A program made the position numbers and the translations under genes. The notes beneath the pieces were generated by a model. That model had not been told where the DNA came from. It worked only from the letters and a program-made list of their open reading frames with translations, and did not search any database. From positions 992,001-1,056,000 of the forward strand of contig NW_027117340.1 in assembly GCF_038025025.1 (NCBI RefSeq): a stretch of DNA of 64,000 nucleotides, written 5' to 3'. Each line of letters opens with the position of its first letter. Within the stretch, counting starts at the first letter, position 1. Of the stretch, positions 39,697-59,704 are shown piece by piece. The DNA is from Phyllosticta citribraziliensis. Lineage: Eukaryota.

Positions 39697-41104
39697 ATGC
39701 ATACCAAGGCCTTTGTGCTGGCAGCACTCAGCACTGTCGTCGCCTCTGAAAAGACTTGTCTGAACCAGACCGTCCCCGTCACCATTTCTTCGCGCAATGG
39801 CAACTTTAGCTTGAAAGCTCCCAGCAACAACATTGAAGCCACTGCTTTTGTTCAGAACCTGTCCCGTCCAGGCCAAAATTACTCGAGCACCGTCCTCAGC
39901 GGATACAACACCGTCTCGGGTACTTACAACATTTCGACAAAGTTTTGCTACGACAACGACAAGTCGGGAACAGACGCAGCGCTGCAGATTCTCACCCACG
40001 GCATCGGCTTTGACAAGACGTACGCGCATCTCTCCGGCCTCAATGGCATAGTCTGACGGGAATGCAGATACTGGGACCTCCCTTACAACAACTACAACTA
40101 CTCTTACATCAATGCTGCGCTTGCCGCCGGCTACTCGACCCTGAGTTACGACCGCCTTGGAATCGGCAACTCGTCTCACGGTGATGCCGTCAACGAGATT
40201 CAATCTTTCCTCGAAGTGGAGGCCCTCCGCTCTCTCACGACCCAGCTCCGCAAAGGAAGCTTCCCTGGCGTCAACCAAAAGTTCAAGAAGATCATCCACG
40301 GCGGCCACTCGTTTGGTTCCATCCAGAGCTACTCATTCGCCAACCTGTACCCGACCGAGACGGACGGCCTGATTCTCACCGGCTTCTCCCTAAACTCGAC
40401 CTACAACGCCTTCTTCCTCGCCGGCGGCAACTTCCAGCTGGCGTCGCTCAACGCTCCTCTTCGCTTTGGAAACCTCAGCGAAGACCTGCTGCACGCCAGC
40501 GCCGACCTCAGCGCTCAGCAAGGTCTGGATGTCGACCTCACTGCGAACCTTGCGAACCTGCTGTCTCCGTCGGCAGGCAGCCCACAAAACTTGCCCAGCG
40601 GCTACCTGGTGACGGGAAACCCCAGCGCCAACCAGTACAACTTCTTCCTGCCCGGCTACTTTGACGCTGGCCTGCTGTATGAGAGCGAGCGCACCAAGCA
40701 GCCCGTCACCGTCGGCGAGCTGCTCACACTCAGCAGCTTGAGCCCGACCAACGCTTTTGCCGGCCCCGTCCTCGTCATCACGGGCTGTAAGTCGATTCTT
40801 CCATCCATCAATCACCCTGTCTCCTAACCTACGTCATCCACGATTTTCTCAACGGGACACATACTAACGTGCCAAACCAGCCGCTGACCTCCCCTTCTGC
40901 GGCGGCGACTGCCTGACCACGGGCACCAGCTCGCCCTCGATCCCGGCCACCGTCTCCAAGTCGTTCATCAACGTCGCGCCCGAGAACTTCACCGCGTACA
41001 TCCAGCCCAACGCTGGCCACGGCCTCAACGCCCATTACAACGCAACGGGTGCCTATGCCTACGTTAACCAGTGGCTCAAGGCTCACGGTCTGGGTGCTAA
41101 CTAG
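39697..41104 (+). CDS. Secreted alpha/beta-hydrolase
   Basis: Signal peptide MHTKAFVLAALSTVVA, then LTHGIGFDK, YDRLGIGNS, GHSFGS, DLPFCGGDC and AGHGLN. Introns about 40020-40067 and 40787-40880. Confidence 0.92.
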
Positions 41105-41790
41105 AAGACTGAGCGACGAGGAAAAGCTATGATTGAGGGATTGTGTATATGGGCTGGGTTTTTGCATGAATGAGATGCATGGATTATGGATACGGTAATG
41201 GTAATTTGATTGCTCTTCTCTCTTGTCAGAGTTTCTGTTTCTTTTGTGACGGGAGTGCCACGCCTTGTGCTTTGCTTTGCCTTACCGCCGTCTACACCGC
41301 GAGATACTCCTCCACAGCGGCAGGCTCTCTGCCCTTGGCCGCGCTTTCAAATCAACTCCAGGCCACCCTAGCCCATCAACCTCCTGCGCTCTTCCCTCGC
41401 CTGCTCCAGACCTCCCTCCGCGGCACAAGGCGCAATACCTCCAAGACCCTCGCCCGCGCGTCTGACCCACTATCCCCGAACGCGCTGGCCTAGTCGAAAC
41501 GTCTCGGTCTGCCGGCCTCCGCTACACCACATACTATCATCGGCCAAACATCCAAGTCTCATGGCCAGGGGAAGAAAGGTAAAGGAATTGGCGGCGCGGC
41601 CGACCGATGCGCCTTTGAGGACGAACAATGCTGCGACCGTGTCCAAGAAGATTCTTCCGTTGGTATCCCCTCCACCCTTACTCACCCACTGCACACGACT
41701 ACTCCACCCAAAATCCAAATCCAAAGCCCCTCGCACCACCAAACCCACGGCACGCCTATCCTACCGGTACCGCTCGCTCCTTTCATCCGC

Positions 41791-42508
41791 TCACAGCTCA
41801 AAGCTCCTCTCAGACTGCGGACACGGCTTCGTGAGCTCCTCATCTGAAAGACCGCCATCCTCGTTTCCACATGGCTCGTTGGCGTACAACATGCGGTACC
41901 GTCTCGTGCCCACTTCCTCTGGTCGCAAATCCCTGATCTCGGCGTCGGTGGCGCGGCTGTTTTTGGTGTCGGTCGTGGAATTGGAGGCGTTGGGATGGTG
42001 AGCTGAGCAGGCGCGAAGCCGTTCTTTGAAGGTTGGCGCGCGGCTCGGTGGGTGGGGGTCTGCGGTGTGGTAGATGGGCGGAAGGGTTGGTGCGTCGGAG
42101 GCGGCGACTGCGCTGTACTGTGTGGAGGAGTTGGCTGAGGTGGCTCTGGAGAGCTGGCGGCATGATTCGGCATCCTTTGCGAAGATGATAGGTGAGCAGA
42201 GTGGTGCGGATATCTTGCACTCGGGCTGGCTTACCTCTCGTCTAGATGTGGCTGCTCTGGTCATGTCTTCGAAGGTAGAGCCGCTGTCTTGTCCGGTGTT
42301 GACACTAGATTGCAGATTTGGTGAGTCTTTCTTGCTACTTTGAAGGCTCTGGACAAACTTACGCGTGTCTGACGACAGTATTACTACTGGTGTTGCCCCC
42401 AGTGCTGTTGGCAGACGCGGGCGTCCCATGTTTCCGACCACTTCGACGGCGTAGGATGGCCTTTGTTTTCTGACGGATCTTTCGGACCCAAGCGCGCCAG
42501 TCGGCCAT
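41791..42508 (-). CDS. Orphan array copy 1
   Basis: MADWRAWVRKIRQKTKAILRRRSG..., phase-2 intron 42362-42305 (GTAAGT...TAG), C-terminus IRDLRPEEVG...DEELTKPCPQSERSFEL. Confidence 0.75.
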
Positions 42509-43073
42509 TGCTGTTTGACAAGACGGGCTTGAAGGTGGTGACTTGTTCAGCGTGTTGTGTGAAAATGTCGGTTCTTGGACAACTGTCGGCGAGGTGGTCT
42601 GCATGGAGGTTGAAAGGTAAAGTAGATGCAGAGGGAGACGACAGCGTCAAAGTCAGACGCGATATCACGCGCGGTTCGGCGTATGACGCGTTCTGTGCCA
42701 TTGGGTTTGGATGACAGAGCGCCGAAGTGAACTAAAGTGAACTGTAAACAAGCCTGATTTGTTCAACCGGGAGCACTTTGCTAATGTCAAAATGTGCAGG
42801 ATCAAAATGTCGAAGTGGTTCTGCTGTTCATGTCACATTTTTCAAGCAATTAACACTGTCTAGGGCACCTGAGCATGATGATGGAAGGGCAAGGTCTTGT
42901 ATTTTCTGCTGTTGATAAAGTCCTCTCGAAACCTCTCTGGTGGTGGAAGACCACGCTCCATTGTCCAGACAAAATAGGGCAAGACTCCGCTCGAACGACA
43001 ACTCTGACGTGCCATATCCCCGAAGCTCAGGTTTCTCTCCAATTGTAACCCGTCGTCGAGTTCCCCCAGACAG

Positions 43074-43659
43074 TTACTCTTCTCCATCGTCCTTCCCGTA
43101 TGCATCCTTCATGCGTCCTTCACGCATGAGTCTGATGACCTCGGCTGGCGGCAGACGCTTGGTGAACGAGATGTTCTCGCTCGGAAAGAGCGTGTAGCGC
43201 GGAGAAGGTGTTGAGTTGGCACTCTGGTGATGCGAGTCGTGTTTCTTGGAGAAGAGATCGTCAGCATGCGAAATCAAGACAAGTCTGAGCTTTCTCACCT
43301 TAGTTTCCACCTTCGCTGGCTTCGTCGGCGGCGTCTCAAGCTCTCCGTAGGGCTTCCGGTTGGGTTTGGATGTTTTGCTCAAGTGAGCGCCTTCGGAGAG
43401 AGTCACGCCGTTTCTCGAAGACAAGTTGTCGCCGCTGGACGCAAGATCTGGTCAATGCCTTCGTCCTCGTTGCTCGTTCTCTCTGGAATACTTACGTGCT
43501 TTTGTCTGGCGCACTGGCAGATTCCAATGGGCTGGCTGACTCGTCGTGTGCAGCAGACTTGGGCGTGGACGGCGCCTCCTTCACCTCGCCGCTGCTGGAG
43601 CGGAAGACCTTCATGGTCTTCTCCTGTACCTTCAGACTCCACTTGCGAAAGCCTGCCAT
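43074..43659 (-). CDS. Orphan array copy 2
   Basis: MAGFRKWSLKVQEKTMKVFRSSSG..., phase-2 intron 43495-43435 (GTAAGT...CAG) joining ORF 43074-43424. A second in-frame intron (GTGAGA...GCTGAC...AAG) is probable. Confidence 0.65.
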
Positions 43660-44251
43660 GCTTGCTCTGCGGAGAGAGGGTCAGAGATGCTTAAGCTGAG
43701 TGAAACGTGGGCGAGGTGGTGTACTTACGTTGTTTGGTATATTTCAAGTGGAAGTGTTTGGATTCGAGGCTCGTGGTGAAGATGAGCGTCGAGGTGGGTA
43801 GATCGATGAGGAGATTCAGGGAGAAGAAGGTCGATGTCAAGACCAGGCGCAGTGTTGCGTGGTTGTTGAACCAGAGGCGCGCCTGCGCTACCCGATTGGG
43901 ACAAAAGATGTGAATGCACTGAAGTGAAGGATTTTGAAATGCCGCCATCCCCAAAAGCTGGTCGATCAACCATCTTCCTTGGCCATGTCACCAAAGGATC
44001 CAGGGAAAAAAGCTGAATATAGATTATCAAAACCACAGAAGGACAGCGCTGGAACTGTTGCAAAGCAGACCATTCAGAATACTTCAGATGTATTGTTGCT
44101 GTACAAGTCCAATTTGTTTAACCCAAGGCGCTTGTTCGCCTTTGACCCAACCCAAAATACAAAGAGTGAACAGAAAAAGCCCCGCAACAGCACCGCATCC
44201 AAGGTCTGACAATCCCTGACCGGCCCACTTTGCCAACTGTGCGCTGAGCTC

Positions 44252-45001
44252 CTAAGCAATGCCAAGGTTCTCGAAGCTGCTGCGCTCGGAACTGCAGCAT
44301 GGGCGAGTCAACTCTTCTTCGTTGACTCCGCTCTTGTTTGGCGTGGCATCGTTGGACGAACCGCTAGGGCAGTACAGGAATGAGGACCTCTTCACGCCAA
44401 TCTCCTCCGGTCGCAGGCCCCTGATTGCGTCCTTGGTGGAGTCTTCTTCGCCAACGCCTGTCATGGCAGCGTTGAGGTAGCGCTCGTAGCGCTCAAGCTT
44501 CCACTGGCGGAGTGTGGGCCTGGGACCTGCCTCCGGGTACGCCATCTCGGGTGTGATGTCCTGCGCTTTGGGGCCGTCGCGTAGGCCAGGAACAGTAGAC
44601 GCTCCAGAGACCTGGCGTTGCCATCCGTCATCCTTGGGAGAGTTGTCAGTATGCAAAGAAGACAGCTTGAAAGCGAGCTCACCTACCTCTGACTCGTTAT
44701 TTATAATGGCTTCGTGCTCTTCATAAGAGATTCGGCCGGTCGAGGATGGATTCTCCGCATCTTCATTCGCAGGGCCACCGTGGGCTTGGTCGTTGGCACT
44801 TAGAGACAAACCTGGTTATTGACGCTCCTTGGAAGACTCTCAGACTATTTACCTGTTTTTTTGAAAGCTCTCGAGGGGTGTTTCGACTGTAGCGACCTGA
44901 GGGGAGAGTTGCACTTGACTCTTGGTGCCCTTGCGAGCACAGCGGAGGAGTGTCTTCGTCTTCGACTTGAGTTTGCGACCGAAAGCTCTCAGGCAAACCA
45001 T
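44252..45001 (-). CDS. Orphan array copy 3
   Basis: MVCLRAFGRKLKSKTKTLLRCARK..., phase-2 intron 44852-44799 (AAG acceptor), C-terminus IRGLRPEEIG...EEELTRPCCSSERSSFENL. Confidence 0.7.
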
Positions 45002-46817
45002 AATTCTTCTGCTCGACGAGGTTGGAAACGCTTGAGTTGGCTTGACCTGGGGCAGGAGACATACTCGTGAGGGTTCAACAAGAGCTCAGAATCGCTGGTC
45101 TGAGGGGAGGGCAGGTTGAAGATGAAGAGAGGAAGAGGGAGAGGTTGAGTGACAGGACAACATTGAAATCAAACATTGGGTCGAGCGTGGGAGAGCTGCC
45201 AAACTTTCACAACTTGAAGTGAATGTGAATGTGGATCCAAGCTATTGTCGGATGTGAATGTGAATCCAGAACCGCGGGCTCGGAGGTTGTCGACTGGGCC
45301 AACCGCAAGTTGCTGTCCATTATCGCTGCGTCATTGTCGGCCTCACATGTCTCGCCTTTCTACAACTCTACTCCGTCTCTTCTCTTGTCATGAATCTAGG
45401 GCTCTCCGTCCAGAGGCTATACAGCTGCGTTCTTCAAATATACGTATACTTCCGGGCTCAAGCATGAAGCTCCAGCATGCTCTCACATCTATCATTCTTT
45501 TCGAAAGCCGAAGCTACCATGGTCCAGGGGATTTGAAGCTAAATGTACACCGAAAACACTCCATATTGCCCAAACAAAAACTTGTCGATGGTGCCGCTTT
45601 CTCATTGGTTACCTGCTGAATTTTTTGCTGGGTACTTGCCCTACGAACGAATATTGGTCGGGTAGCGCAAGTGGCCAGTAGCTCTGGGCGACCTTTTGAC
45701 TGTAATCTAAAGACGTTGAGATTGCGGGTCTTTCTCCTCGCGAGCAGAGAAGCGACGTAGACGCGACTTTTGAGATGCACTCATTTCAGGGGCAAAGGTG
45801 TGCTGAGCGAATATTTGGTCAGCGTTGTCCACAAGAGGTTTCAGAGACACTTACGTCTCTTTTGGCGCTAGATGTTTGCACATCTGGCTTGTGATGGAAT
45901 TGATGGGCGTAAAATGTCCTTTTCGCAGCAGCTTTCGCAGAGGACTGCTATCGCTCGCCCTTTGAAGACCCTTCCGCGCAAACCTCTCTTTCTAGACGGT
46001 ACAGAGTGCAGATCCATGTCATGCTAAAAGCTCGATGATCTGAAGCAGCAAATCGTAGCGTTGAATGATGCGCTAAACGCCGACTGGGATCAAAGGAAAA
46101 TGTGCAGTGTCGGAAGAGTCAAAGATGCGGGCGCGGAGGAGCAAAAGGCGCAACCGTATACCTAGTAAACGAAACAACACAATGCGCGCCGAACAGTTCA
46201 TTCAACCCAGCGCCTCACTCTGCCTGAAAAACTGCAGTTAATATCTTGATCCACCGAATTTCCTTGGGCCATGCCAAAGTGTCTTCTGTGGCGGCAAGCC
46301 CCTGAGGAGTATGAGTTGAAAATGCGCCCACCACCATTTCTTGGAAACAGACACTTCGGTTGGACTGTGGAAGCTATCAGTTGTTGATGACTGAACAATA
46401 GGCGGGATTTTGAGTTTTCTGTGAGCAAAGAGGCTTCGTTGGTGCGTTGTGGCTGCTCAACGCGAGCCTTCCGTGTGCTTCACTGACGGCTCCTGTGCCG
46501 CCTTTCGCAGAATGTTTCCTGCGAGGATCTAAAAGAGGTACTTCGACAATCGAAAATGAATATGAGCAGCATGTAGAAAGCATTGACTTTCTGCAGGGCG
46601 GTTTCGACACGAGAATCTCTGAGGACCGGCTACCCCTGAATGTCTCGATAACCCAAATTACGACATCTGACCCCAAAAGACCAAATAAAGACCCCAAAAA
46701 GACTGATTGCAAGTGTTGGAGAAACGAAAACTTTTGATTAGGTGGAGTAGCGACCGCAAATATCCTCGTCTGTCCAAGGCCAAACTCTCCCAAAACCCTC
46801 GCTCCACCGCGCCTTCG

Positions 46818-47181
46818 TCAGATGGATCGCCTCTTGTCAACACGGCGAGGTCCAAAATCGTTGTTCGCCGGATTTGCAAAGAGGTCGTGGCTCGAAAAAT
46901 GGATAGGACCGACCTCGTCCGGGTGAAGTTCCCACTCTTCATCCTCGCCCAGTTCGAAAGTCCTCGGCTGTTCCTCCTCTTCCTCCCTCTGCTCCGCAGC
47001 CATTTTCCTCACAAACGACGGCAAGCGAAGCTTGTGGGGCTTTCCTTCTGCCTTGGACCCCCGTGCAGCGGAAGCGTGCCATGGATTGTGCGTGCCGAAG
47101 AGCGAGGAGGTGTCGCTGCGCTCCTCCAGACGCGGATCTTGGTCGTCGGACGCGTCCGGCGCAGAGCTTGGGCTTCCATGT

Positions 47182-47214
<33 letters not shown>

Positions 47215-47603
47215 CTGGCTGGGTGGCGGTGGCGGCGCTCGTGGCATGCGGTGCGCTCGAAAGAGCAAGAGGAAACCGTGCTCGTGGAGTTGGTGGTAGC
47301 GAGAAACCGGAAGCCTACTTGACCTGCTCGGCGAGATGGACGGGCGGCGGCTTGGGCGCCAGCTGGTGAGCTGGAGCCGATGACTTCGCCTTGATGCGGC
47401 GTGGTTCGTTGTCCACGCGGCGAGCGAGCGTTGGACCTGGAGCAGTCAGTGTTGGTACAGGAGTCTGTGTTACGGTGCAAGGAGACGTACTTGTGGAGGC
47501 TTCCATCCTGCCTCTCCTGCTCTAGTCGACGTTGCCGTTCTCTGGAGAAAAGACTTCTCATCTTCGTGGCAGCCCTCCGGGCGGAAGCCGAGATGCGGCC
47601 CAT
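46818..47603 (-). CDS. Orphan array copy 4
   Basis: MGRISASARRAATKMRSLFSRERQRR..., 54-nt phase-2 intron 47490-47437 (GTACGT...CTGAC...CAG), poly-Asp tract, C-terminal GPIHF. Confidence 0.75.
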
Positions 47604-48753
47604 GGTGTACGATCTGGAGACAAATAGCTGGGGTCAGAAGCCTATAGGCAGATTATAGGAACGAGGAACGTGTAGATTGAACCACTTACTGTCAATGAGA
47701 TGGCGAAAGAACCGTGGCGTGCAGCAAGGGCGAAAGTTTTGAGATGGTGTTGGACGCGAAGCAAAGGACCGCGCAGCTCTCGTAGACCACCACTACCTTT
47801 GGCATAGTAATGACTTCACGGGCTCAGTTTATCGCCCATAGACTCCTGGTAATCTTTGCTGTGAATTCACAAAGCAGACCGAAGTGAAGAGAAGTGAAGC
47901 CAAATTGCCACCCCACCCAACTTGGCGCAAAATGGCCGGTCGAAAGCCGGGATTTCTATACTGATGACATGGAGACGTTTTATACGGAGGATTCAATAAT
48001 GCTTTGAGGAGAATTTGACGGGCGATGGGGCGTATTTATGGAAGTGATTTGGTTTGGTTGCTTGGTAAAATAGCGCCGATCTGCTTGCGTCAAACCGCCT
48101 CTCTGACGAAACTCTCTGATTGCTTGACAACTAAGGTGGCAAGCTATAATCCTTCCTTCTGCCCAAACAAAGATCGAAGTCGCTGGTTCCAGAAGCAATG
48201 GGTGTTCAAGTGGCTTCAGATTCGGCGTCCCACTCCAAGATGTTAAACCACTTCTGAAAGCTGATCATGGCGAGAGAAAACATGTGCGCCCGGCCATAAG
48301 AACAGCCCCATTCGCTGCTTCAAGGGAGAGAATACCTGCTGAAACCGTAGTCATGCAGTTGCGGCCCTCCTCTGGACAAAGCTCTAAGTTTGGGGCGTTG
48401 CTTTGTTCGTGGACAATCTTTGTTGACAACTTGTCAATGCCATTGATTTGCCCGATGCGTTTGGAAGACTTGCGGTCTTTGGATGTCGCCATCATAGGCA
48501 CTCCTTTGTTCAATCCGTACTCGCGAAGCACCCGTCCTGATGAGAGACCATCATAGCCTTACAAACTTGCTTCAAAACTTGTTCTGTGGATGGTCGAGTT
48601 ACTGCAATTTGGGTATCTAAAGTACAGGGAACCCAGCCTCAAACCTCATGACCCAAATGTTTACATGCAAACCCAGAACCAAGGAGCAACAGGGACTAGA
48701 AGTGAAAGCAAACCCGCGATGCCCCATCCCGAACCAAACTGAATGTCCCAGCG

Positions 48754-49703
48754 CTAGTTATTGTAGCCGTGCCTTGCGCGCCAGGCCTTGACGAACTCTT
48801 CGTCGAGTTCTTCGGCCTCCTCCAAGTTACCGATGCGAACATTGTCGTCTTCTAGAACGACCAGCGAGTCGCTGAAGTCGTAGCCGCGACAGTAACCGTA
48901 GTAGCGGCCATCTTCGTAATCATCGACTGCGGCGTCCTCACTGCCCATGGAGATCGAGTTGGTTGAGATTCCGGACAGAGAGAAAAGGCAAATCTCCGAG
49001 CGCTCAACCATTGGGATGCGGACTTTCGGAGCAGTGTCGACCTTGTTTGCGTGGAAATCAGCGTCGTGGTGAGAGTCGGTCTCGCAGGCCGTGCTGGCGT
49101 CGGGAGAGAACTCCGAGTTGAATTCAGTGGCAGAGGAGATCTCGTGATGATGGTAGATCTCACTGCTGTCGTCCGCGGCGTACTCCGATTCGAATTTGGT
49201 CGTCGAAGAGGACTCGTGGTTAGGACGAGTCTCGCTGCTGGCGTCGGCGGAGTCCACGTCGTACGTGCTGGGCGAAGAATACGAGCGGCTGGGATCGGTC
49301 TCGAGCAGAGCGACGCTGGTGTTGGCGAGCACCGGCAAGTCAAATTGCAAGGATGAAGAGATCACCATTCCGCTCAACGATCCGAACGATGGTAGCTGGC
49401 GGCAGAGCGGGCGGCTTGCTTCGGAGCCGCTGGTCTCGATGTTGCTGCGTTTGCTGCTGAGCAAGTTGCCCTCTGCATTGCGCTGGGGAGACGCCTCGTT
49501 GACGCGCTCAAGAGATCTGTGAGAGGGATTAGTGCCTGAGCTCTGAATTGAAGTGGGCAGGCTTACGAATCGTCGGCTTCCTCGTTGGAAACCATAGTGC
49601 TGGTGACAGTCGTTGAAGCCTTCGACTTGCGACGAAGCAGCGCTTTGGAAATCTTGCTCAGCCTGGCCTTGGCCTTACTTCCAAAGTTCTTGACGCGAGC
49701 CAT
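48754..49703 (-). CDS. Orphan array copy 5
   Basis: MARVKNFGSKAKARLSKISKALLRRK..., phase-2 intron 49566-49517 (GTAAGC...CTAAT...CAG), C-terminus YGYCRGY...EEFVKAWRARHGYNN. Confidence 0.78.
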
Positions 49704-50096
49704 TCTTGAAAGCAAGGTGGCGAGGTAGAGTCTGCTTGGACGAAGAAAGGTGGAGGTTGAGCGGTAGGAAAGGCGAGCTCAATGGCGACAAGGCCAATGG
49801 GCGAGAGGCAAAAGAGACGCGTCGTGATCTGGACGAGAGAAGATTGAGGGGTGGTGTGGTTGAGGACGCACAAGATGGGACAAGGTCTAAAGTATTTGAA
49901 GGGACGCGCCTCGTGGAGCACGCGTGCGGGCGTGCAGTGTGTCGCGCGGGTGGAGGCAGGGACGCCGAAAGAGGAAGGAGGCTTCACAACCCACATTGCC
50001 AAACGCCCGAAGCTGTATGTGTACATACCTTACTGTAAAATTACATGCATTTTGCTGAATCACGCTCCCGCATTTGTCTGCGCGGAAAATATACAT

Positions 50097-50472
50097 GGGA
50101 GTCTTACTGAATCCACACTCCCACCCCCTGTTGACAACTGAATCCACACACTGTTACTGAACCCACCCTCCCACCCACGGCTTTACTAAATCCACCTTCT
50201 ACTTTACTAAATCCACCCTCCCATAACTAATTATATACTATATCTTAGGCTTTGTTTTAGTTAGGGAAGTCTATACTAGTAAGACTATTCATGGGTATAT
50301 ACATAGGTAAAAGTAAATATAGAAAAAACGTTAAGGTTATCTAGTAAAGAGGGTGGATTTAGCAAAGTAGAAGGTGGATTTAGTAAAGCCGTGGGTGGGA
50401 GGGTGGGTTCAGTAACAGTGTGTGGATTCAGTTGTCGACAAGGGTAGGGAGGGTGGATTCAGTAAATAACCC
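50097..50472. mobile_element. Non-autonomous Mutator-like (MULE) MITE, 376 bp
   Basis: Near-perfect terminal inverted repeats of about 124 bp (50097-50220 and 50349-50472) starting GGG and built from five ACTRAAYCCAC subrepeats. Perfect 9-bp target-site duplication AATATACAT at 50088-50096 and 50473-50481. AT- and TpA-rich core with no ORF. Confidence 0.92.
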
Positions 50473-50754
50473 AATATACATTGGGAAAGAAGGAACACCA
50501 AATCCAGCCTATTGGTTGGCATTTTTGACTAATGGCTACTGCAAAGGTGAGAAACGAAAGGACATCGAATCTGGCATCTGCATTTGAAGAAACTATCGCA
50601 AGTCTGATTTAGACTCTGAACCCCTCCCAGCCGACAAGTCGTATATTTGCAAGTGACGGGTTCACCAATCTTCCTCCGAGCCAGCCTCTCCACATGCTAC
50701 ATCTTCCGGGCAGCCACTCGAACGAGTCCAATCCAACCAGAAGGTGGCGATCGA

Positions 50755-51474
50755 CTACCCAGTAACCTGACTGACATCCTCAATCGTATCCGTGACGCTG
50801 GCGCCATTTCTTGACAACCTCATTTTGAAAGCCATGTCTCCACCATCAACTCCGTGTTCGAAAGAAGTTTCCGTCTCGGCGAGTTGACAGCTGTCTCTGA
50901 AGAGAGTGCAGATTCCGTAATGATGGGCCGGGCCTTCGAAGTTGTATTTGTTGATGTCATTCGCGTCTTCTTCGCTCTTGGATTGAAAGCCGTCGAGGGA
51001 GAAGTCGGATCTCTGTTCGCGTGGGCAGACGACCTTGGGAGCCATGATCTGCGTATCTTGCTGGGTCTTGTTCTCGCACATCGCAACACCAGTATCGATC
51101 GACTCATTGGTCTCAGATGCGGTGGATTCGGAGGACTTATTCTCGCTCACAGACTCAGGCAGTGGCGAGTCGCGAGATTGAGGACGGTCGGCTTCAATAT
51201 GGTCGTCGCCAGTGTCGTTCAACTCTCCGGTCAAGCAAATGTGATCATGAGAAAGCATTTTGCCGTGAGACTTGTGCTGTCCATTTGATCTGCAGAAGGC
51301 GACTCAGCGATTGCAATGTACAAGGGGTAAGCGTGCTTACGTTTTGTGAACTTCTGCATCGATCAAAGCTGAGATGTTGGAAGCCGATTCTGGAGTCTTG
51401 CGCTGGCGACGCGCTTTGAATAGACGTTGGAGACTGATCCTGGCTTTGGTGGCAAGTCTTTTGATGCGGGCCAT
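50755..51474 (-). CDS. Orphan array copy 6
   Basis: MARIKRLATKARISLQRLFKARRQRK..., phase-2 intron 51340-51290 (GTAAGC...CAG), then APKVVCPREQRSDFSL...YGICTLFR. Confidence 0.78.
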
Positions 51475-52199
51475 GCCGGAAGTTCCCCAGAGAAACGGGG
51501 GAATGTGTTGCGTAGCTGGGTTGCTTGCTTGAAGGTGTGCAGCGGCTCGCAAGGAGAGGTAAGGTTGGAGACGTAGGAGCAAAACAAATGTGTGGTGGTG
51601 GATGTTGACAGTGATACGGGAAAAGGATGGGACAGAAGGTTTGCAAGAAAAGAACAATGACATGCCAAAATCCACGCACAAAGCGCGACGCGCCAGGGCA
51701 GGCAGACGCGTCCAGCGAGGAACAACACAACACCGCAAAAAACACAGAAAACATGGAAAAGACAATGAACGAGTGAGATTGGCTTAGGGTGATGATCAGG
51801 CGTATCACGACTGTTGGCCCAGACGTAGTCAACCTCGTATGGGCGGCGGTTTTCAAGGTGAATATACCCATGTAGAGTGATATGGGTGCAATTGGCACGC
51901 TGTCGCTGGTTCTTCGTCGCGACCGTGACGTGAGGGAAATCGCCCACGTAAGTCTGGGAAGCCAGATCAAAAGTTTATAAGCATTTTGCTGAATTATGCT
52001 CTCCATTCATCTACGCAAGATATATGTTAGAAAATAAAGAGGACCAAACAAATCCTGATGCTTGAGTTGTGGAGTGATGACTATAGCAAAGACGGGAATG
52101 AAGACGAGTCGAAGACTGAATCCGAGCAACCCAAGCCTCCAAGGTCCCAATTAGGCATTTTTGATATACTCTAGCTGTTTTGGCGCACAGCTGCCGCAG

Positions 52200-52711
52200 C
52201 TACTCGTATCCATGACGAGCCCGCCACGCCCTGATGAACTCCGCATCCGGAGCAACCTTCGGTTCTACAGCAGTGCCCGCCAGCGTCTCCTCCGGCATCG
52301 CGAAAAGATTGCCATGCCTGAACAGTCTGCAGACGCCGTACTCGCGGGACGGGCGATCAGAGCGGTCATCGTAGCCCTGAGCCGGCTCGTCCCCGCGGGA
52401 ATGGATGCTCGGCGTCAGAGAGAGGGAAAAGTCGGACCTCTCATCGGAAGGGCAGAGGATCGTCGGAGATGTGGATTTGGCAACGACCTTGTCGAGTGAG
52501 GATTGAGAGGAGCCCTCGCCCGTTGGGTTGGTCGATCCGTCGGAGCTCTTGCTGTCGGATTTGTAAGGGCAACGGCCATACATGTACGGAAATCCTGTGA
52601 GTGTAACCTTAGGCGCCGGTCTGGTTCTTGTGACAAGCAGCAAGTTCCGCCCAGGTCCCGTCAAAAGAGAACAACGTACAAATTCTTAAGACACCGTATC
52701 GGACAAGCCAT
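52200..52711 (-). CDS. Orphan array copy 7 (short first exon; ATG overlaps the stop codon of copy 8; may be a pseudogene)
   Basis: ATG 52711 gives MACPIRCLKNL. Phase-2 intron 52679-52621 (GTACGT...CAG, weak branch site) joins ORF 52200 in frame: PTILCPSDERSDFSL...YGVCRLFR...EFIRAWRARHGYE. Confidence 0.55.
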
Positions 52712-53430
52712 CACAAAGGCCAATCAAAAGCAAAAACAATCGGCCCATATGACCACGGATCACGCCTCCGCTCGCTCTCCAACCCATCATCCACGGTCGT
52801 CGTCACGGGCGGCAGCCCCTTCCAGCCAGTGATTAACCTGTCACTGCGCTCCTCCTCGCGGCGCAGGTCGCGCTTGGGCGGCCGTTTGGCGCGCGACGGC
52901 GGCTCGAGCAGCTCGAAGATCGTCGACAGCACGACGGGACGGCGGAGGTGCTTGTGGAGGTTGGCGCGCGGGGGCGCTGCTGCTCTGCCCACGGGACGGT
53001 CGCTTTTGGGACGAATGCGCTTCCAGGGGTTCGCCGCGGGCGCGGGGGCTTCCGGGAGGGAGAGGGGTTGGACGGGCAGGACGACGCGCGTGGCTGGACT
53101 TGTGTCGAGCTCCTCGTCCTCTTCTTCTTCTTCGTCATCGTCGCCGTAGTCCTTGTCGTCCTCGAAGTCGGAGCTGTCGAGGGAGAATTTTGAGACCATA
53201 TTGGCCTCAGAGATGGGTCTTTGGGCAGCTCTGCTGGGAGGATTAGCTGTCGTCCTGTGCGTGAGGCTTGAGAATACTGACGATGTGCGGGGGTCCCGAT
53301 CGCTCGAGGTGTGCGAAACTGGCTTTGCCGGAACCGCGTCGTTCGTGTCCAAGCGGGCACAGTGGCGGGCCATGAAGAACTTGAAGACCTTGCTGGAGGC
53401 GCGGCGGGCGAGGGACTTGGTGCGAGCCAT
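52711..53430 (-). CDS. Orphan array copy 8
   Basis: MARTKSLARRASSKVFKFFMARH..., 48-nt phase-2 intron 53281-53234 (GTCAGT...GCTAAT...CAG), acidic tract, C-terminal GPIVF. Confidence 0.75.
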   Translation of the reverse strand: MARTKSLARRASSKVFKFFMARHCARLDTNDAVPAKPVSHTSSDRDPRTSSVFSSLTHRTTANPPSRAAQRPISEANMVSKFSLDSSDFEDDKDYGDDDEEEEEDEELDTSPATRVVLPVQPLSLPEAPAPAANPWKRIRPKSDRPVGRAAAPPRANLHKHLRRPVVLSTIFELLEPPSRAKRPPKRDLRREEERSDRLITGWKGLPPVTTTVDDGLESERRRDPWSYGPIVFAFDWPL

Positions 53431-54117
53431 CGCTGAAAATTGCGAGAAAGGTGGTGAAGAGAAGGTGGAAAGCAGAGAATATCAGCTCGTCTCAAGGAGA
53501 GTATCTGGTCGCCGGGGAAAGGAGGCTTGTCTGTGGAGAAGTGAGGTGTGCAGCGAGAGTGTCGATAGCTGTTGGGAACCCAGTGCTTTATAGGCGCGGG
53601 AGCCAGGAAATATGACCCTTAACGAATCCTGTTGGTCTGCCGTGTTCGGTCAAAAGTGTGACAGACATCTGTTTTCTTTCCTGTGATTCGACTTTGACCT
53701 GGAAACTTGTCAACGGTCGTCTGGTAGAGCCTCGGTCGTGATTAAGCAAAAACGCGACCCCAACGATGTGATCAAGAGTACCAATAGTGCGAGGCCTTGC
53801 GAAAAGCCAAATGAGGCATGGTGGAAACCAGAAGACCAACGACCAAAGACAAAACGAAGTGGGTCATAAGCTAATGGAAATGCAGTGTCTTTTCCAAGAA
53901 TGATACGCAGAAACAGACAGGGGAACCCAAGCCGTCGTTGTCCGGGTCTTCACACCCTTCCGTAAGTTAGCGGCCCATGATTTTCTTTCATCCTAACAGT
54001 CAAAGTCCCTGCTTCTCCCAAGACTAGTTACAACAATGACTTCAGAAAACAGTGAAAGAGAACCTTTGACACATGCAAGAAGCCCAGTATCGTGTTTCCA
54101 CCTCAGATCTTTCCCAG

Positions 54118-54844
54118 TCAGCGGTCGGCAGAGGTCAGATCGCGCGTAGGGGTGAGATCGTAAGCACCCGCAGAAAAGTAGTCGTAGGGATTTCTCAGAA
54201 TACCGTAACCTGGTGTCGGTGGACCCTCTGGGATCTCCATTGAAATTCGATAATCCGCAAAACTTGCCGCTGAAGCTGTCTGGGGTTTGTCGTTCTCGTT
54301 GATAGGTTCGACACAGTTAGAAGACGAAGCCGTGGTCGGAAGGCGGTTTTCTCTGAGGCTTTGCTGGCCGGTGGTGCCAAGTGACTTGGGGCGAGACGTT
54401 GAGCGGGTATCGAGCGCCGGCTCCGGTCCTGGTGAGAACGAGAAGTTGGATGCGAGAGCGGGAGTAGGCATCGACGAAATGGCAACAGGGCTGGTCGGGC
54501 GAGGACAGCGGTGCAGGATCTCCAGTTCCGAGGGAGCAGGGAGCGTGTCAAGGGTCTCGTCAAGGCTCGTCGGACCCGAGGGACTGCTCTGAGGCTGAGC
54601 GCCCTTCTTCCTCAGTCGATTGACCAGCTTGCGCAGAGCATTAAGCGCGAATCTGGTTGAGCGTATTGAGCAGGCTTTTCATTGATAGGAGGCATTGAGA
54701 TGGCACTTACCGCATCTTGGTGCTTGGAACGGGCTGACTCTGAGGCTTGCTTTCCATGGTAGAAGGGTCCTGACACTGGCGCGTTGAGAAGAGGGTCTTC
54801 GCTTTCTGGCTCGAGTTCTCTGTCTCGGGTCTGAGTTGAGCCAC
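54118..54844 (-). CDS. Orphan array copy 9 (GTG where paralogs have ATG; first in-frame ATG at 54757)
   Basis: (V)AQLRPETENSSQKAKTLFSTRQC..., phase-2 intron 54710-54653 (GTAAGT...CAG) joining ORF 54118, GYGILR near the C-terminus. Confidence 0.6.
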
Positions 54845-55758
54845 GGTAAAGGCTGCAAAATGAGTGAAGTGGACCAGGTTGAGTAACGATGGTAAATAGG
54901 TCGGGGTCACTCGACAGACAGGCGGGTGCAGACACCACGAATGTCAACCAAGATCTGGAAGTTTGCGCGGACTCGGTGCACCCACGACATGTCCACGCTA
55001 TGCAGGCACAAAAGCAGACGCCAACGCGGTTCTTGGCGCGCGGAAAGGAGAAGAATATCGGCCACCACCAAACTTGCGCAACCATGCTACGACAAACCTT
55101 GGAAATCTGCTTCCTCTTGAAATCTCCGGCTTCGCCCGATCTGATGCGACGAAATGAACTCTCCAGCACCTGGTGAGTCTCTTCGGACCCCATGAGGAGC
55201 TATGCCACCGAGCCTTCTCCAAATTGAGAGAAAGAAAAGAAGGGAAAATATACCCACGTCAAAGTTCAGCGAACCCCATCTGAGGTCAAGAGTCTGCAAG
55301 ACATCTCTCGAACATGTCGGCCGTCAGTCGAGCAGGCCAATCCAGTGGTCGTAGTGCCTCTTACAGAGCAGGGCGCCCTGGAGCCATGCCCTGAGCTCGC
55401 ATATATATGCCTCACCACGACAAATGGCAAAGTTTGTTGCCAAAGGCGTACGTAGTGGCATTGATAGACAAAAAAACGCGACTATGAAAAGTAAAAGGCC
55501 TACCAAATAGACGCGTTTGGCGTATAGCAAGTGGCACATGACCAAAGGACATAGCAGGAGATGAAGGTGAAAGGAGAAGAGAATATGCATTTCCGAAAGC
55601 AAGCCGCTGTAGCAGGAAGCGGCATCACCAACGTGTTGGTTGTAAACGTCAAACGCCGTTGACACGTATCTATCATGTCTAGGAGTGGTATTTTACTGGT
55701 TTCAAAAAGGGAAGAAGAGAAAGTCCGGGGCCGATCTTTTCGTGTTAAGGAGAAGAAC

Positions 55759-57107
55759 TTAAGCACCGTTGGAGAAGCCGTTGCTGGCGACACCACCGAT
55801 GGTCTTCTTCAGCGCTTGCTGGATATCGCTCACCAAGTCTGCGCCGTCTTCGATGCCGCAGCTGACTCTGACCAGGTCGTCAAAGACGCCGGCGGCCTCC
55901 CTCTGGTCCTTGGGGATGCCCATGTGCGTCATGCTTGCGGGCACCTCGACCAAGCTCTCGACGCCGCCGAGGGACTCGGCGAGGGTGAAGATCTTGGTGT
56001 GTGTGCAGAAGCGCTCAGCGGCCTCCTTGCCACCCTTGATGCGGAAGGAGAGCATGCCTCCGCCCATGCCGTTGCGGTGTTGCTTGAGCGTAATGTAGTG
56101 CTGGGGATGCGAGGCGAGACCGGGGTAGTTGACGGCAATGACCTCGGGCGATTTCTCCAGCATGGTCGCGACCGCTGTTGCGTTTGTGGTCGCCTCCCGG
56201 GCGCGCAGGTGGAGCGTTTTGAGACCGCGATGCGCCAGCCAGCAGTCGAATGCGCCGGGCACAGCTCCAATCGCGTTTTGCAGAAATGACAGGCGCTCGA
56301 ACAGAGCGTCCGAGTTGAATGCAGCGACACCCATCAACACGTCGGAATGTCCGTTGATGTACTTGGTCACGCTGTGTACCACAAAGTCGGCGCCATGGTC
56401 GAGCGGGTTTTGCACGTATGGAGAGAGGAAAGTGTTGTCAACCACGACGAGAATTCCATGCCTGTGAGCAATGGTGGCGACGGCTCGGATGTCCACTAGG
56501 CTGAGCGTAGGGTTGCTGGGCGTCTCGATCCAGATCAACTTGGTCTCGTTCGGGCGGATCAGGTTCTCGATATCGAGCTCGATGGATGGCGAGAAAGTGA
56601 CGTGGACGCCATGCGCGGCGGCGACCTTGGTGAAATAGCGGTGGGTTCCTCCATATACGTCCGACACGGAAACGACGTGCGAGCCTGAAGCCAGAGACTG
56701 GAGTATTATAGCGGTGGTTGCGGAGCCGGAGGAGAATGCGAGAGAGTAGCGAGCATGTTCGAGAGCAGCAACCGCCTTTTCAAAGTTGTCCCTGGCGCGC
56801 GAGGTTAGAGACTACCTGCAAAACATGGAGATGTGCTCACCTGTTGGGATTTGAGCTGCGAGTGTACTCGTACTGGCCCACGGGCTTGCCAACGGCTGAT
56901 TGCGCAAAGGTGGTGGACAGGGAAATCTAGCGACAAGTCAGCGGTCAATTCTCATGGGGTTTGCGCAAGCGCAGAGCATACAGGCTCAATGACGGCTCCA
57001 GTGACGGGATCGTGAGGCGAGCCAGCATGGACAGCCAGAGTGCCAAAACGGTGGTCCGGCGATGGAGCGCGCGGCGGGGTATCGATAGAGTGTTCGGTCT
57101 GCGTCAT
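55759..57107 (-). CDS. CYS3: Cystathionine gamma-lyase
   Basis: FGTLAVHAG...|ISLSTTF...YEYTRSSNPNR|, DVYGGT, ETPSNPTL, VDNTF, the PLP-lysine motif HSVTKY and LAESLGGVESL. Introns 56981-56927 and 56840-56792. Confidence 0.96.
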
Positions 57108-58270
57108 GGCGGCGGCGACTACGGTATGTACAGTACAGCGACGGCGGATGGCTCTTTGAGGAGGCGAAGAAGAAGAAAAAGCAGAGGGCCGAGGGCGTCG
57201 AAGAGGATTTCAAAGTCTTGGGTAATAGAATGGCAGTCGACGTCGTATGACGGCGTCCGTGTGGTGGGCTGGTCGGGCAAAAAGGCGCAGCGCTGGGTTT
57301 AAGACAAGACGGATGGAATGAATGGGATGGCTTCCCTGGTAGAGTCACACACACCTCAAGTCGACCGACTATGGCGCAATCGCAACTAGACAAGCAAGGG
57401 CTTCGACTGTTGTTTCTGGCGCATGCCACTACTTCTGCGAGCTCCTGTTTAGCACCACAAAGTGCTTGGTAATTCGGCCTGGAGAGAGCGTCAATAAGCC
57501 CGGCAGCACGCCTCGGGCCCTGGTGGCGTCGCGCTTTGCCCCGCATTGTTAGACGCGTCGGGTCGCTGTCATCATCGCACAGTACATGTCCGTCGGCTGC
57601 GTGGAGTCGTTGTCGCTTACCGTCTGCTTGTCCATTTGTCATTCGTCCGACATGAATCCTTTGGTTTCTCTAGCATTTGAGCCAATCAATCCGACTCCGA
57701 GGCCCAGGGCTGCTTTTACAATTTATCCGTCCGACGACACCCATTTTGTCGTCGGGATATCCGGTCATAGATTAAGAGCTAGTGATCTGTCAAGCCTGAA
57801 GCTGAAATACCTACGTGTACCTATCTAGCAACTCAAGATGCTTTCTCTGGGTACGGAGTGGGTGCTGGCCGAAGACGCAGTTGCGACCGCAATTTTCCGA
57901 CGCCGTGCCGACTGCACCACCAACGACGTCTCTATTCCGTAGGCCAAGCTGTAATCCATCCCACGACACCTCCGCTCAACCTCGAGCACTTCATCTCGTT
58001 CATCAGCACCGCCTCACCCGACACAACAGGCGATTGATTGCTAGACCACTGGAGCTGCTACTCTCTTGGAATCGTAGTCCTTTGCCTTTCCCAAGCTGTC
58101 GATCGAGGCACCATCATCCGACAAACACTTGCTAGATACGCGAGTCAAATGAACAACTCTGCAGGCGGTCCTTGTCCTTGAAAATGCCATGAGCGTGGCC
58201 ACGCTCAACCGGGCTGCCGAGTCTTCTTCCATGCCCTAGGAGCGCCGACAACAGGCTCGCAATCACATCT

Positions 58271-58942
58271 CTACTCAGCCTCCTGCTCACGCTTGATAGC
58301 CTTATCTCCCTCCTTCTTGCCTTTGTCGTTTCTGTCTCGCTTGCGCTTGCTGCTGTTGGGCGGCATCAACGTCTTGCAAATGAGGACGTAGATGTCGTCC
58401 GCTTCTCCAAGCTTGATGTCCTCCAAAATCTGGCACAGCTGCATTGCAGATTCACCGGGCTGAGAGTCGAGGGTGCTCATGGCGTAGCTGCAAAAGTCGA
58501 TACCGGTCCTGGCAGGCGTAGCACTGAATGCGTATGATGGCTGATTGCCCGAGCCGACCCAAAGATGTAGGACCATGGCAAGCAGCTCCCTGCTCTTGCC
58601 CTCAAACATGGCCACTTTTCCCTCCAGATCCTTGGATTCTTGGCTCTCCTCCGCGATATCCTCAGAGACGGTGTCCTTCTGCATGATCTCAAGTTTGTCG
58701 AGAATGTTCTCCAAGAGTTCTGCATGGGCAGCCTGATTGGCAGCTAGGGTGGTCTGCTTAGCAGCTATGACGGCCAGGTTGTTCTGCGTCATGCGCTCGG
58801 TGGAAGACAGGCTGAATAGATGATTTGCCTTCTGCCACTCAGTGTCTCCCTCCTGTGGAACCGGCACGTTGATCGTGTCCGCAGCCATCAGCGAACGAGA
58901 GGAGGGCTCGCTACGACGTGACTCTTGTTTGGTACGAGCCAT
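58271..58942 (-). CDS. Hypothetical protein (223 aa) with an H3-like N-terminus, coiled coil and basic NLS-like tail
   Basis: ORF starts MARTKQESRRS, has a heptad-like segment (AHAELLENILDKLEIM) and ends with KRKRDRNDKGKK. A probable 5'-UTR intron lies upstream. Confidence 0.7.
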   Translation of the reverse strand: MARTKQESRRSEPSSRSLMAADTINVPVPQEGDTEWQKANHLFSLSSTERMTQNNLAVIAAKQTTLAANQAAHAELLENILDKLEIMQKDTVSEDIAEESQESKDLEGKVAMFEGKSRELLAMVLHLWVGSGNQPSYAFSATPARTGIDFCSYAMSTLDSQPGESAMQLCQILEDIKLGEADDIYVLICKTLMPPNSSKRKRDRNDKGKKEGDKAIKREQEAE

Positions 58943-59704
58943 CTGAGTGTGTGCTGGTGCGCGTAATGGTGTGGTAGCCGCCTCGCTGGAAGAAGTCTTC
59001 TTGGCTCTGGTTCCTTAGAAGAGCGTCAGCAGGAGCTTTGATCATGCCATGAGAGGGGAATGGAAGTACCTTGGAGATGCTGGACTATAGGCTGTGAAGG
59101 GATGACGGTCGAGGAGCTAGGACGAGCAAGCGGATCTCAGTACCGATGAAAGGCTCTCCAGGCTCTTCAGGCTGTGACAGCACTGCCTGACAAGCTCTTC
59201 GAGTCGAAGTGTTTGGCGAGAGTAGTGATTGGAGATGCTGGCGGAGGACTTAAGAAGCGACCCGACGAGGTGTTGCCAGCAGGTACTGGCAAAAGGCCGG
59301 AGTCCCAATGGTTGTAGACGTGTAGTCGACAATATCTCTTGTTGCAGATCACGACCCGACGCGTCGCGTTGCTCTTCCGTTCTACCTTTTGACACACAGA
59401 CTCACTCCGCAACACCAACACTGACGTTTACACCCACTGATTCCCCTCACCTCCACTCTTTGGTGTTGGCAGGGCTTTAGCTTCTCAACCGACAGTGCTC
59501 TCCACACCAAGCCTTTTCCTGCCGAGTCCCTGACCATCTACGGCTTTCACCTCACCAAAGCACCTGCTCCTCACCATCCACTCTCAACGCCTTCTGCCTG
59601 TACCGCCTGGCACCTCCCCGGCAGTCTATCCTGACAACTTGTTTTTCCCCAGCGGGTCATCAGCTTCACTCAGCAAAATAATTCGGTCCACCCACTCGCC
59701 CAAC

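Follow-up and report, generated by a model that had tools for sequence, protein, structure and literature searches.

A co-oriented array of nine small orphan genes in Phyllosticta citribraziliensis: one family or several?

Are nine small genes that lie side by side and share strand and intron phase one family or several? The question is raised by a locus of Phyllosticta citribraziliensis, in a window (the whole stretch of DNA analyzed) of 64,000 nucleotides (nt), in which minus-strand open frames between 41.8 and 54.8 kb are spliced into nine small, adjacent, co-oriented genes. These are referred to here as copies 1 to 9, numbered by rising coordinate, all on the minus strand. The initial annotation had described them as highly diverged paralogs of a single family, hidden by introns and possibly part of a conflict system. 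We favor, with a probability of about 0.6, a different reading, in which nine small genes set between housekeeping genes and outside known families would comprise two families restricted to the genus plus the solitary copy 9, with constraint on short modules and growth in tandem. A literature search turned up nothing published on the locus or on either family.

Relationships among the nine copies

All-versus-all BLAST gave E values of ≤1e-3 in 5 of the 36 pairs, namely, 1-3 (2e-11), 1-2 (1.8e-4), 5-7 (7e-11), 6-7 (8.8e-8), and 5-6 (1.7e-4), all of which fall within groups. A composition-controlled shuffle test of the first 28 residues, applied to 28 pairs, returned p values of 0.0002 to 0.007 among copies 1, 2, and 3 and of 0.0002 to 0.05 among copies 4, 5, 6, and 8, except for the pair 4-5, at 0.33. 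Bonferroni correction was passed by six of the 28 pairs (1-2, 1-3, 4-6, 4-8, 5-6, and 6-8), each within its class, and none of the 12 cross-class pairs fell below p 0.08. Alignment with hhalign of profiles that included orthologues linked family I, as defined below, to copy 2 (E of 1e-4), family II to copy 8 (0.0076), and copy 4 to copy 8 (0.021). Hidden Markov models (HMMs) of the N termini of each class found only their own members among the 1567 six-frame open reading frames (ORFs) of the window and produced no cross-hits.

By these sequence comparisons, two families are demonstrable, alongside copy 9. Family I consists of copies 1 to 3, and family II consists of copies 4, 5, 6, and 8, which share the N-terminal helix, together with copies 5, 6, and 7, which share the C-terminal region. 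The description of all nine as paralogs of one family is not borne out: few pairs are linked by BLAST, the profiles split into two groups and a lone copy 9, and the class HMMs do not cross. Profile similarity between copies, which the initial annotation had expected, is significant within the groups but not beyond them, with the profiles of families I and II aligning at an E value of 0.055, over a stretch in the middle of the proteins and not at their N termini, and copy 9 reaching at least 0.21. Local amplification, in turn, is supported within the groups by both BLAST and the N-terminal shuffle tests, and nucleotide similarity between the copies is gone, as stated, except for runs of acidic codons.

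In family I, the similarity of copy 1 to copy 3 extends over the full length (BLAST E of 2e-11). Copy 1 has exons at 42508-42363 and 42304-41791, separated by a predicted phase 2 intron of 58 nt (42362-42305), and encodes 219 amino acids (aa). Copy 3 (exons 45001-44853 and 44798-44252; predicted phase 2 intron of 54 nt; 231 aa) lies beyond copy 2 (exons 43659-43496 and 43434-43074; predicted phase 2 intron of 61 nt; 174 aa), which joins the family by its N terminus only, as seen against copy 1 (BLAST E of 1.8e-4; shuffle p of 0.0002) and against the family I profile (hhalign E of 1e-4). The C-terminal motif of the family reads LRPEE[VI]G...PC..SERS. A possible tenth member lies outside the array, at 59117-59401 on the minus strand, where the family I HMM gave an E value of 0.007 over a 40-residue C-terminal stretch resembling ...EEL..PCC.S..., with no match to the N terminus; the similarity is due to chance or else marks a degenerate relic.

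In family II, copy 5 (exons 49703-49567 and 49516-48754; phase 2 intron of 50 nt at 49566-49517, confirmed by RNA; 299 aa) and copy 6 (exons 51474-51341 and 51289-50755; phase 2 intron of 51 nt at 51340-51290, also confirmed by RNA; 222 aa) resemble each other at both ends, and copy 6 matches copies 5 and 7 by BLAST with E values of 1.7e-4 and 8.8e-8, respectively. Copy 7 (52200..52711) consists of the family II C-terminal region without the basic N terminus (E of 7e-11 against copy 5 and 8.8e-8 against copy 6). Its open frame runs from 52685 to 52200 with a first methionine at 52583, giving 127 aa, and the terminal helix motif EFxxAWRARHGY is found in copies 5 and 7. Copy 8 (exons 53430-53282 and 53230-52711; RNA-confirmed phase 2 intron of 51 nt at 53281-53231; 222 aa) belongs to family II by its N terminus and has a C-terminal motif of its own. 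Copy 4 (46818..47603), which holds a run of ten aspartates, likewise joins by its N terminus only (shuffle tests with copies 6 and 8 gave p values of 0.0006 and 0.0002, respectively); its predicted intron (47490-47437; 54 nt) is in frame, so that the protein has 243 aa if spliced and 261 aa if unspliced.

Copy 9 (exons 54757-54711 and 54652-54118; RNA-confirmed phase 2 intron of 58 nt at 54710-54653; 193 aa) stands apart, and its basic helix lies downstream of the intron. Against the other copies it gave BLAST E values of at least 0.41, hhalign E values of at least 0.21, and p values of at least 0.17 in helix tests with seven pairs. No relative was found in Pfam or the PDB and no lead in the ESM Atlas. 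On this evidence from sequence, copy 9 is unrelated to the other eight copies.

A single old family, in which the eight helix-bearing genes, perhaps together with copy 9, arose from one ancestor by tandem duplication and diverged past ordinary detection, is rather unlikely. The copies are all adjacent and co-oriented, a phase 2 first intron of 50 to 61 nt occurs in all nine models, and in seven of them it lies 37 to 54 codons in, just past the basic helix. From general intron phase frequencies, however, we estimate that three independent groups would share a phase by a coincidence of about 1 in 16. For the N-terminal profiles of families I and II, the best alignment has an offset of 0 (p of 0.002 to 0.006 by column shuffling), but a reversed family II control reached p 0.018 with a score of 7.5 versus 9.8; because the control scores nearly as well, the signal between the families may reflect amphipathic periodicity and not ancestry. 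Copies 1, 3, 4, 5, 6, 7, and 8 each have a single [EQ]RS site in comparable surroundings, yet its context was not significant across groups in 17 shuffle tests (p of 0.12 to 0.96), and neither was LRPEEVG, including an LRPEEVG-like site in copy 4, in 10 tests (p of 0.20 to 0.98). No cross-class N-terminal pair reached p < 0.05, the hhalign alignment between the family profiles lies in midprotein, the class HMMs gave no cross-hits, and copy 9 matched no other copy. Common ancestry of families I and II is possible but unproven.

Motifs that seem to be shared across groups look alike by eye and fail shuffle tests. Besides the two just described, these include the EFxxAWRARHGY helix, for which eight tests outside copies 5 and 7 gave p values of 0.06 to 0.87, with copy 6 at 0.12.

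Gene models and transcription

The start codons proposed for the nine genes are ATG in eight cases, at 42508, 43659, 45001, 47603, 49703, 51474, 52711, and 53430, but the ninth, at 54844, is a GTG. The true start of copy 9 is at 54757, the sole in-frame ATG before the intron, and the intron is preceded by 15 codons plus 2 nt and not by about 44 codons. First introns with GT..AG borders and in phase 2 are present in all nine models, with lengths of 58, 61, 54, 54, 50, 51, 59, 51, and 58 nt in copies 1 to 9. The phase 2 intron proposed for every copy thus holds at the level of the models and is confirmed by RNA in four of the nine, whereas in copy 7 it is read through by a contig. Its proposed position after 37 to 54 codons is correct for seven copies but not for copy 9, at 15 codons, and the earlier model of copy 7 placed it after 10. 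Reading frames are intact in all nine models. The initial description of the genes as such is largely correct, save for one start (copy 9) and one copy in doubt (copy 7). The introns of copies 4 and 8 (47437-47490, 54 nt, and 53231-53281, 51 nt) are multiples of three and leave the frame open if retained, which accounts for the public model of copy 4 being unspliced.

Evidence from RNA was taken from the Logan contigs of one public run, X1 (28% of sampled words), which were compared with positions 40001-58000. In 17 of 18 pieces the contigs agree with the window at ≥99%, and they contain joints; they therefore derive from RNA of this organism. Four introns are removed exactly, 49517-49566 in copy 5, 51290-51340 in copy 6, 53231-53281 in copy 8, and 54653-54710 in copy 9; all read CT..AC on the plus strand, i.e., they are minus-strand introns at the predicted places. 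At least copies 5 to 9 are therefore transcribed, with four first introns removed as predicted. Besides these junctions, the reality of the genes is borne out by deposited models that agree with ours for copies 1, 6, and 8 and by orthologues of copies 3, 5, 7, and 8. No contig covers 43001-48400, where copies 2 to 4 lie, and this blank says nothing on their expression. The spliced transcripts expected at the predicted junctions are thus seen for copies 5, 6, 8, and 9 but not for copy 7, where the sole covering contig (piece 52015-53230) is unspliced at the predicted intron 52621-52679, downstream of the proposed 32-nt exon 52711-52680. The sense intron of copy 1 (42305-42362) was not seen spliced in the X1 contigs either; in both cases, rare isoforms could escape contigs.

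Over copy 1, one contig instead shows an antisense joint, a plus-strand intron at 42321..42378 with GT..AG borders (GTGAGT...CTGAC..CAG) that overlaps the boundary between exon 1 and the intron of copy 1. The joint is seen in a single low-depth contig (depth of 9.3), with 29 letters on its short side. This antisense intron is 58 nt long, the same length as the predicted sense intron, from which it is offset by 16 nt. The minus-strand intron 42305-42362 itself is used in the deposited protein P0004.

A 3607-nt contig runs from 55707 to 52015 and joins the 3′ end of CYS3 without a gap to copies 9, 8, and 7, with only the introns of copies 9 and 8 removed. It shares 30 nt with the CYS3 contig and ends with adapter sequence, 185 nt beyond the copy 7 stop and about 700 nt beyond the copy 8 stop. 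This gap-free coverage of 52015-55707 points to read-through, or to untranslated regions that overlap, in a row of four genes on one strand. It also bears on the proposal that the array is in part nonfunctional, with copies 2, 4, 7, and 9 being decaying duplicates or young ORFs carried on read-through transcripts. The helix is missing from copy 7, whose ATG at 52711 overlaps the adjoining copy 8 stop; copies 2 and 4 had no orthologue in the searches made; and copy 9 has no relative among the other copies or in Pfam, the PDB, and the Atlas. Decay is nevertheless unlikely given that all frames are intact, that the intron of copy 9 is precisely removed, and that copy 7, in its C-terminal part, retains 75% identity to its Phyllosticta citrichinensis counterpart, compared with 68% for copy 5.

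The arrangement of copies 8 and 7 has one further property. Exon 1 of copy 8 (phase 2 donor at 53282) and the acceptor of copy 7 (52621) are in frame, and joining them would give a protein of 189 aa that combines the helix and the C-terminal region of family II and so has the architecture of copies 5 and 6. No such joint was seen in the X1 contigs, which rare isoforms could escape.

Distribution, existing models, and neighborhood

Named homologues of the array proteins, nine of nine, all come from Phyllosticta: P. citribraziliensis itself (two assemblies), P. citrichinensis, P. citriasiana, and P. paracitricarpa, with 45 to 75% identity between species. The 100% matches bear the name P. citribraziliensis, to which the window is thereby assigned. 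An exhaustive HMMER search with copy 8 over 1.84 billion representatives returned two matches, itself (P0010) and P0011, its one further relative, at 43% identity. Both families, as far as named sequences go, so far have relatives only in the genus. Global identity to P. citrichinensis is 68% for copy 5 and 75% for copy 7, and that of copy 3 to proteins of P. citriasiana and P. paracitricarpa is 45 to 50%. According to PMC9073689, the closest relative of P. citribraziliensis, an endophyte, is P. citrichinaensis, and citrus pathogens are among its closest relatives. Rapid divergence between close species, as the initial annotation proposed, is supported by these identities.

The array is mostly not hidden, in that most copies have already been deposited as hypothetical proteins and are merely uncharacterized. 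Deposited models exist for copies 1, 2, 3, 4, 5, 6, and 8, so the phrase "hidden by introns" was an overstatement, although several of these models differ from ours. For copy 1, 199 of 199 aligned residues are identical to P0004, a model that lacks one further internal stretch. The chimeric P0006 combines copy 2 with copy 3. Copy 3 is deposited as P0003 with another 5′ end, and the basic N terminus of the present model is also that of the copy 3 orthologues P0005 and P0007. Copy 4 is deposited in unspliced form. Copy 5 corresponds to the partial P0001, which is 100% identical and has the same junction, and its P. citrichinensis orthologue P0002 has the same N terminus and junction. Copies 6 and 8 are identical to P0008 and P0010, respectively, over 222 of 222 residues each. 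No deposited P. citribraziliensis protein was returned for copy 7; its P. citrichinensis orthologue P0009 likewise lacks the basic N terminus. The analysis thereby corrects public gene models at the start of P0003, the partial copy 5, the copy 2 fused in P0006, and the copy 7 that was not returned. The proteins, already on deposit as hypothetical, are genus-restricted orphans, as judged from sequence searches.

The gene order in the window is WLM, CCCH zinc finger, GH18, Vps53, EMC3, SPC25, alpha/beta hydrolase, UTP23, DUF726, a weakly hydrolase-like gene, the array, a CYS3-like PLP enzyme, and an RRM protein. The proposed flanks of the array are confirmed on the side of the CYS3-like gene (Pfam Cys_Met_Meta_PP, 1.6e-126), but the left neighbor is only weakly like an alpha/beta-hydrolase (4.6e-5, below the cutoff). 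The neighbors are housekeeping or ordinary genes and not a biosynthetic cluster. Around the array, nothing points to a biosynthetic or mobile-element island except a single inverted repeat resembling a MITE between copies 5 and 6. In this element (50104-50465), two arms of 117 nt with 95% complementarity flank a 128-nt spacer, and there are internal direct subrepeats of 21 and 50 nt.

Protein anatomy and possible roles

Seven copies share a common anatomy, a basic amphipathic N-terminal helix of 20 to 25 residues followed by an acidic or serine-rich linker and short conserved C-terminal motifs. In copies 1 to 6 and 8, the first 25 residues have a net charge of +4 to +10 and a hydrophobic moment of 0.51 to 0.69, whereas the remaining residues range from neutral to strongly acidic in net charge, with −32 in copy 5 as the extreme. 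The lysine- and arginine-rich amphipathic start that the initial annotation noticed in most copies is therefore present in these seven; copy 7 lacks it, and copy 9 has it only after the intron. The first acidic residue occurs at positions 22 to 41 in copies 3, 4, 5, 6, and 8 and at Asp3 in copy 1 and Glu13 in copy 2.

No signal peptide is apparent in any of the nine copies, in agreement with the initial annotation; the highest 19-residue Kyte-Doolittle mean is at most 1.14 and the N termini are strongly charged. The same hydropathy limit excludes a membrane segment by this measure in all nine. With no signal peptide, the proteins are intracellular unless exported unconventionally. The absence of a recognizable domain was also upheld. 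Pfam gave no match above the gathering score for any of nine second exons or ORFs and none above the cutoff for three first exons, with two subthreshold chance matches among the nine bodies. A PDB sequence search with four queries yielded one chance match, at an E value of 0.035, and otherwise nothing. The best ESM Atlas scores for copies 9 and 4 were 0.80 and 0.82, under the 0.9 level of a lead. AlphaFold predicted copy 7, from its alignment, with a pLDDT of 54 and with only the terminal EFxxAWRARHGY helix (residues 114 to 123) confident, and copy 8 with a pLDDT of 50 and a helix at residues 5 to 26; the ESM Atlas entry for copy 4, which is the unspliced 261-aa form, has a pLDDT of 0.45. These models, together with the lack of a signal peptide, support the view that the proteins are intracellular and largely disordered, with only short helices, as the initial annotation had surmised.

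The basic helix could be a cleavable presequence, and the proteins could belong to mitochondria or another organelle. The predicted helix at 5 to 26 in copy 8, the late first acidic residue (22 to 41) in copies 3, 4, 5, 6, and 8, and an initial 25-residue segment with a net charge of +7 to +10 and a moment of 0.51 to 0.69 are consistent with this. However, some 40% of the residues are lysine or arginine, above the charge density of typical presequences; nuclear or nucleolar signals and the ligands of basic-helix receptors fit equally well. Asp3 in copy 1 and Glu13 in copy 2 fit poorly, and long acidic disordered bodies are unusual for matrix proteins, so that a presequence seems improbable. 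More generally, basic amphipathic targeting and docking helices, such as mitochondrial presequences, nucleolar signals, and calmodulin-binding helices, resemble those of the array in charge (+4 to +10) and moment (0.51 to 0.69), with five of the seven lacking an acidic residue before position 22.

A second way to read the N termini concerns the family II start MAR[TIV]K, which the N terminus of histone H3 resembles and which might engage chromatin readers or writers as a tail mimic. Copy 8 starts with MARTK, copy 5 with MARVK, and copy 6 with MARIK, and a minus-strand ORF of 223 aa just past the CYS3-like gene (58274-58942) starts with MARTKQ. The start is not kept in the orthologues, however, P0011 having MSHTK and P0002 MVRVK, which weakens the idea. 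The exons have no Pfam histone match; the MARTKQ ORF itself has no Pfam match and reaches an E value of only 7.8 against the family II N-terminal HMM; and by our estimate chance alone would yield a match of 4 to 5 residues a few times in a proteome. Histone mimicry is hardly credible on this balance.

The anatomy of the proteins is that of disordered adaptor or regulator proteins. The arrays would have grown by local tandem duplication, with constraint acting on the short modules only and with relaxed linkers; such limited constraint would account for the fast divergence, and duplication along with relaxed linkers for the array itself. As for roles, the N-terminal helix would most likely be a targeting or docking module, for the nucleus or nucleolus, an organelle, or a basic-helix receptor, and the C-terminal motifs would most likely be short linear binding sites for partner proteins.

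A role in conflict, whether meiotic drive, allorecognition, or genome defense, with antagonistic intracellular factors under diversifying selection, draws circumstantial support from tandem amplification, restriction to one genus, and 45 to 75% identity between close species. Disordered proteins change fast without conflict, however, no HET, Spok-type, nuclease, kinase, or transmembrane feature was seen by Pfam or hydropathy, and copy 1 is identical in two assemblies of the species over 199 of 199 residues. There is no evidence for a conflict system at this locus, and we consider one very improbable. Only slightly less improbable is a bolder form of the one-family idea, in which eight helix-bearing genes would form a single genus-specific, rapidly diversifying family that combines a docking helix with exchangeable C-terminal motif cassettes, has grown by tandem duplication and by sharing of first exons (e.g., exon 1 of copy 8 with the body of copy 7), and serves as an antagonistic or self/non-self module, in drive, incompatibility, or a host interaction to which it would be delivered without a signal peptide.

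Several points weigh against the reading of two families plus copy 9. The same architecture, intron phase, and strand occur side by side, and the two-way split may only reflect lost signal (p of 0.005 for the link between the families). Copies 2 and 4 are tied to their families by the N-terminal 28 to 45 residues alone in the sequence comparisons; no orthologue of either was returned, copy 2 having been covered only within reach of the profile of copies 1 and 3 and copy 4 having been searched in the ESM Atlas only. Copy 7, lacking the helix, may not be an independent gene, and since a single contig spans 52015-55707, leaving transcript units undefined, read-through RNA could carry some of the ORFs. 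The databases consist of predicted proteins and were searched through word filters or as 50% representatives, so that unannotated relatives outside the genus would be missed. Finally, the roles of the helix and motifs are inferred.

With two families and copy 9 as the preferred reading, the closest likeness is to the orphan tandem gene families of fungi, in which, too, no homologue is detected outside one genus and which share tandem duplication, small size, disorder, and fast divergence. These are a category without a mechanism; the present locus differs in holding two families with an unusual common architecture of basic N-terminal helix, phase 2 intron, and acidic linker. Clustered secreted effectors of plant-associated fungi, as in, e.g., Ustilago maydis, are similar in being co-oriented arrays of small, domain-less, fast-diverging genes, but the array proteins have no signal peptide, highly charged N termini, and a maximal hydropathy of 1.14. 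Spok, wtf, and HET-domain genes are alike in lineage restriction, fast evolution, and occasional multiple copies, whereas their domains and membrane segments are absent from the array proteins by Pfam and hydropathy. Genes for the septal-pore-associated proteins of filamentous ascomycetes are not known as tandem arrays. Those disordered proteins resemble the ones described here in lineage restriction, intracellular location, and lack of domains, a likeness by description only that offers a lead (PMC10023807).

The locus by itself reveals no new mechanism. If the preferred reading is true, it is a compact and expressed example of genus-restricted genes for disordered proteins that multiply and diverge beside housekeeping genes while keeping no more than a basic N-terminal helix and a few short motifs. 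It would then also offer a tractable case for learning what orphan families do in an endophyte related to citrus pathogens.

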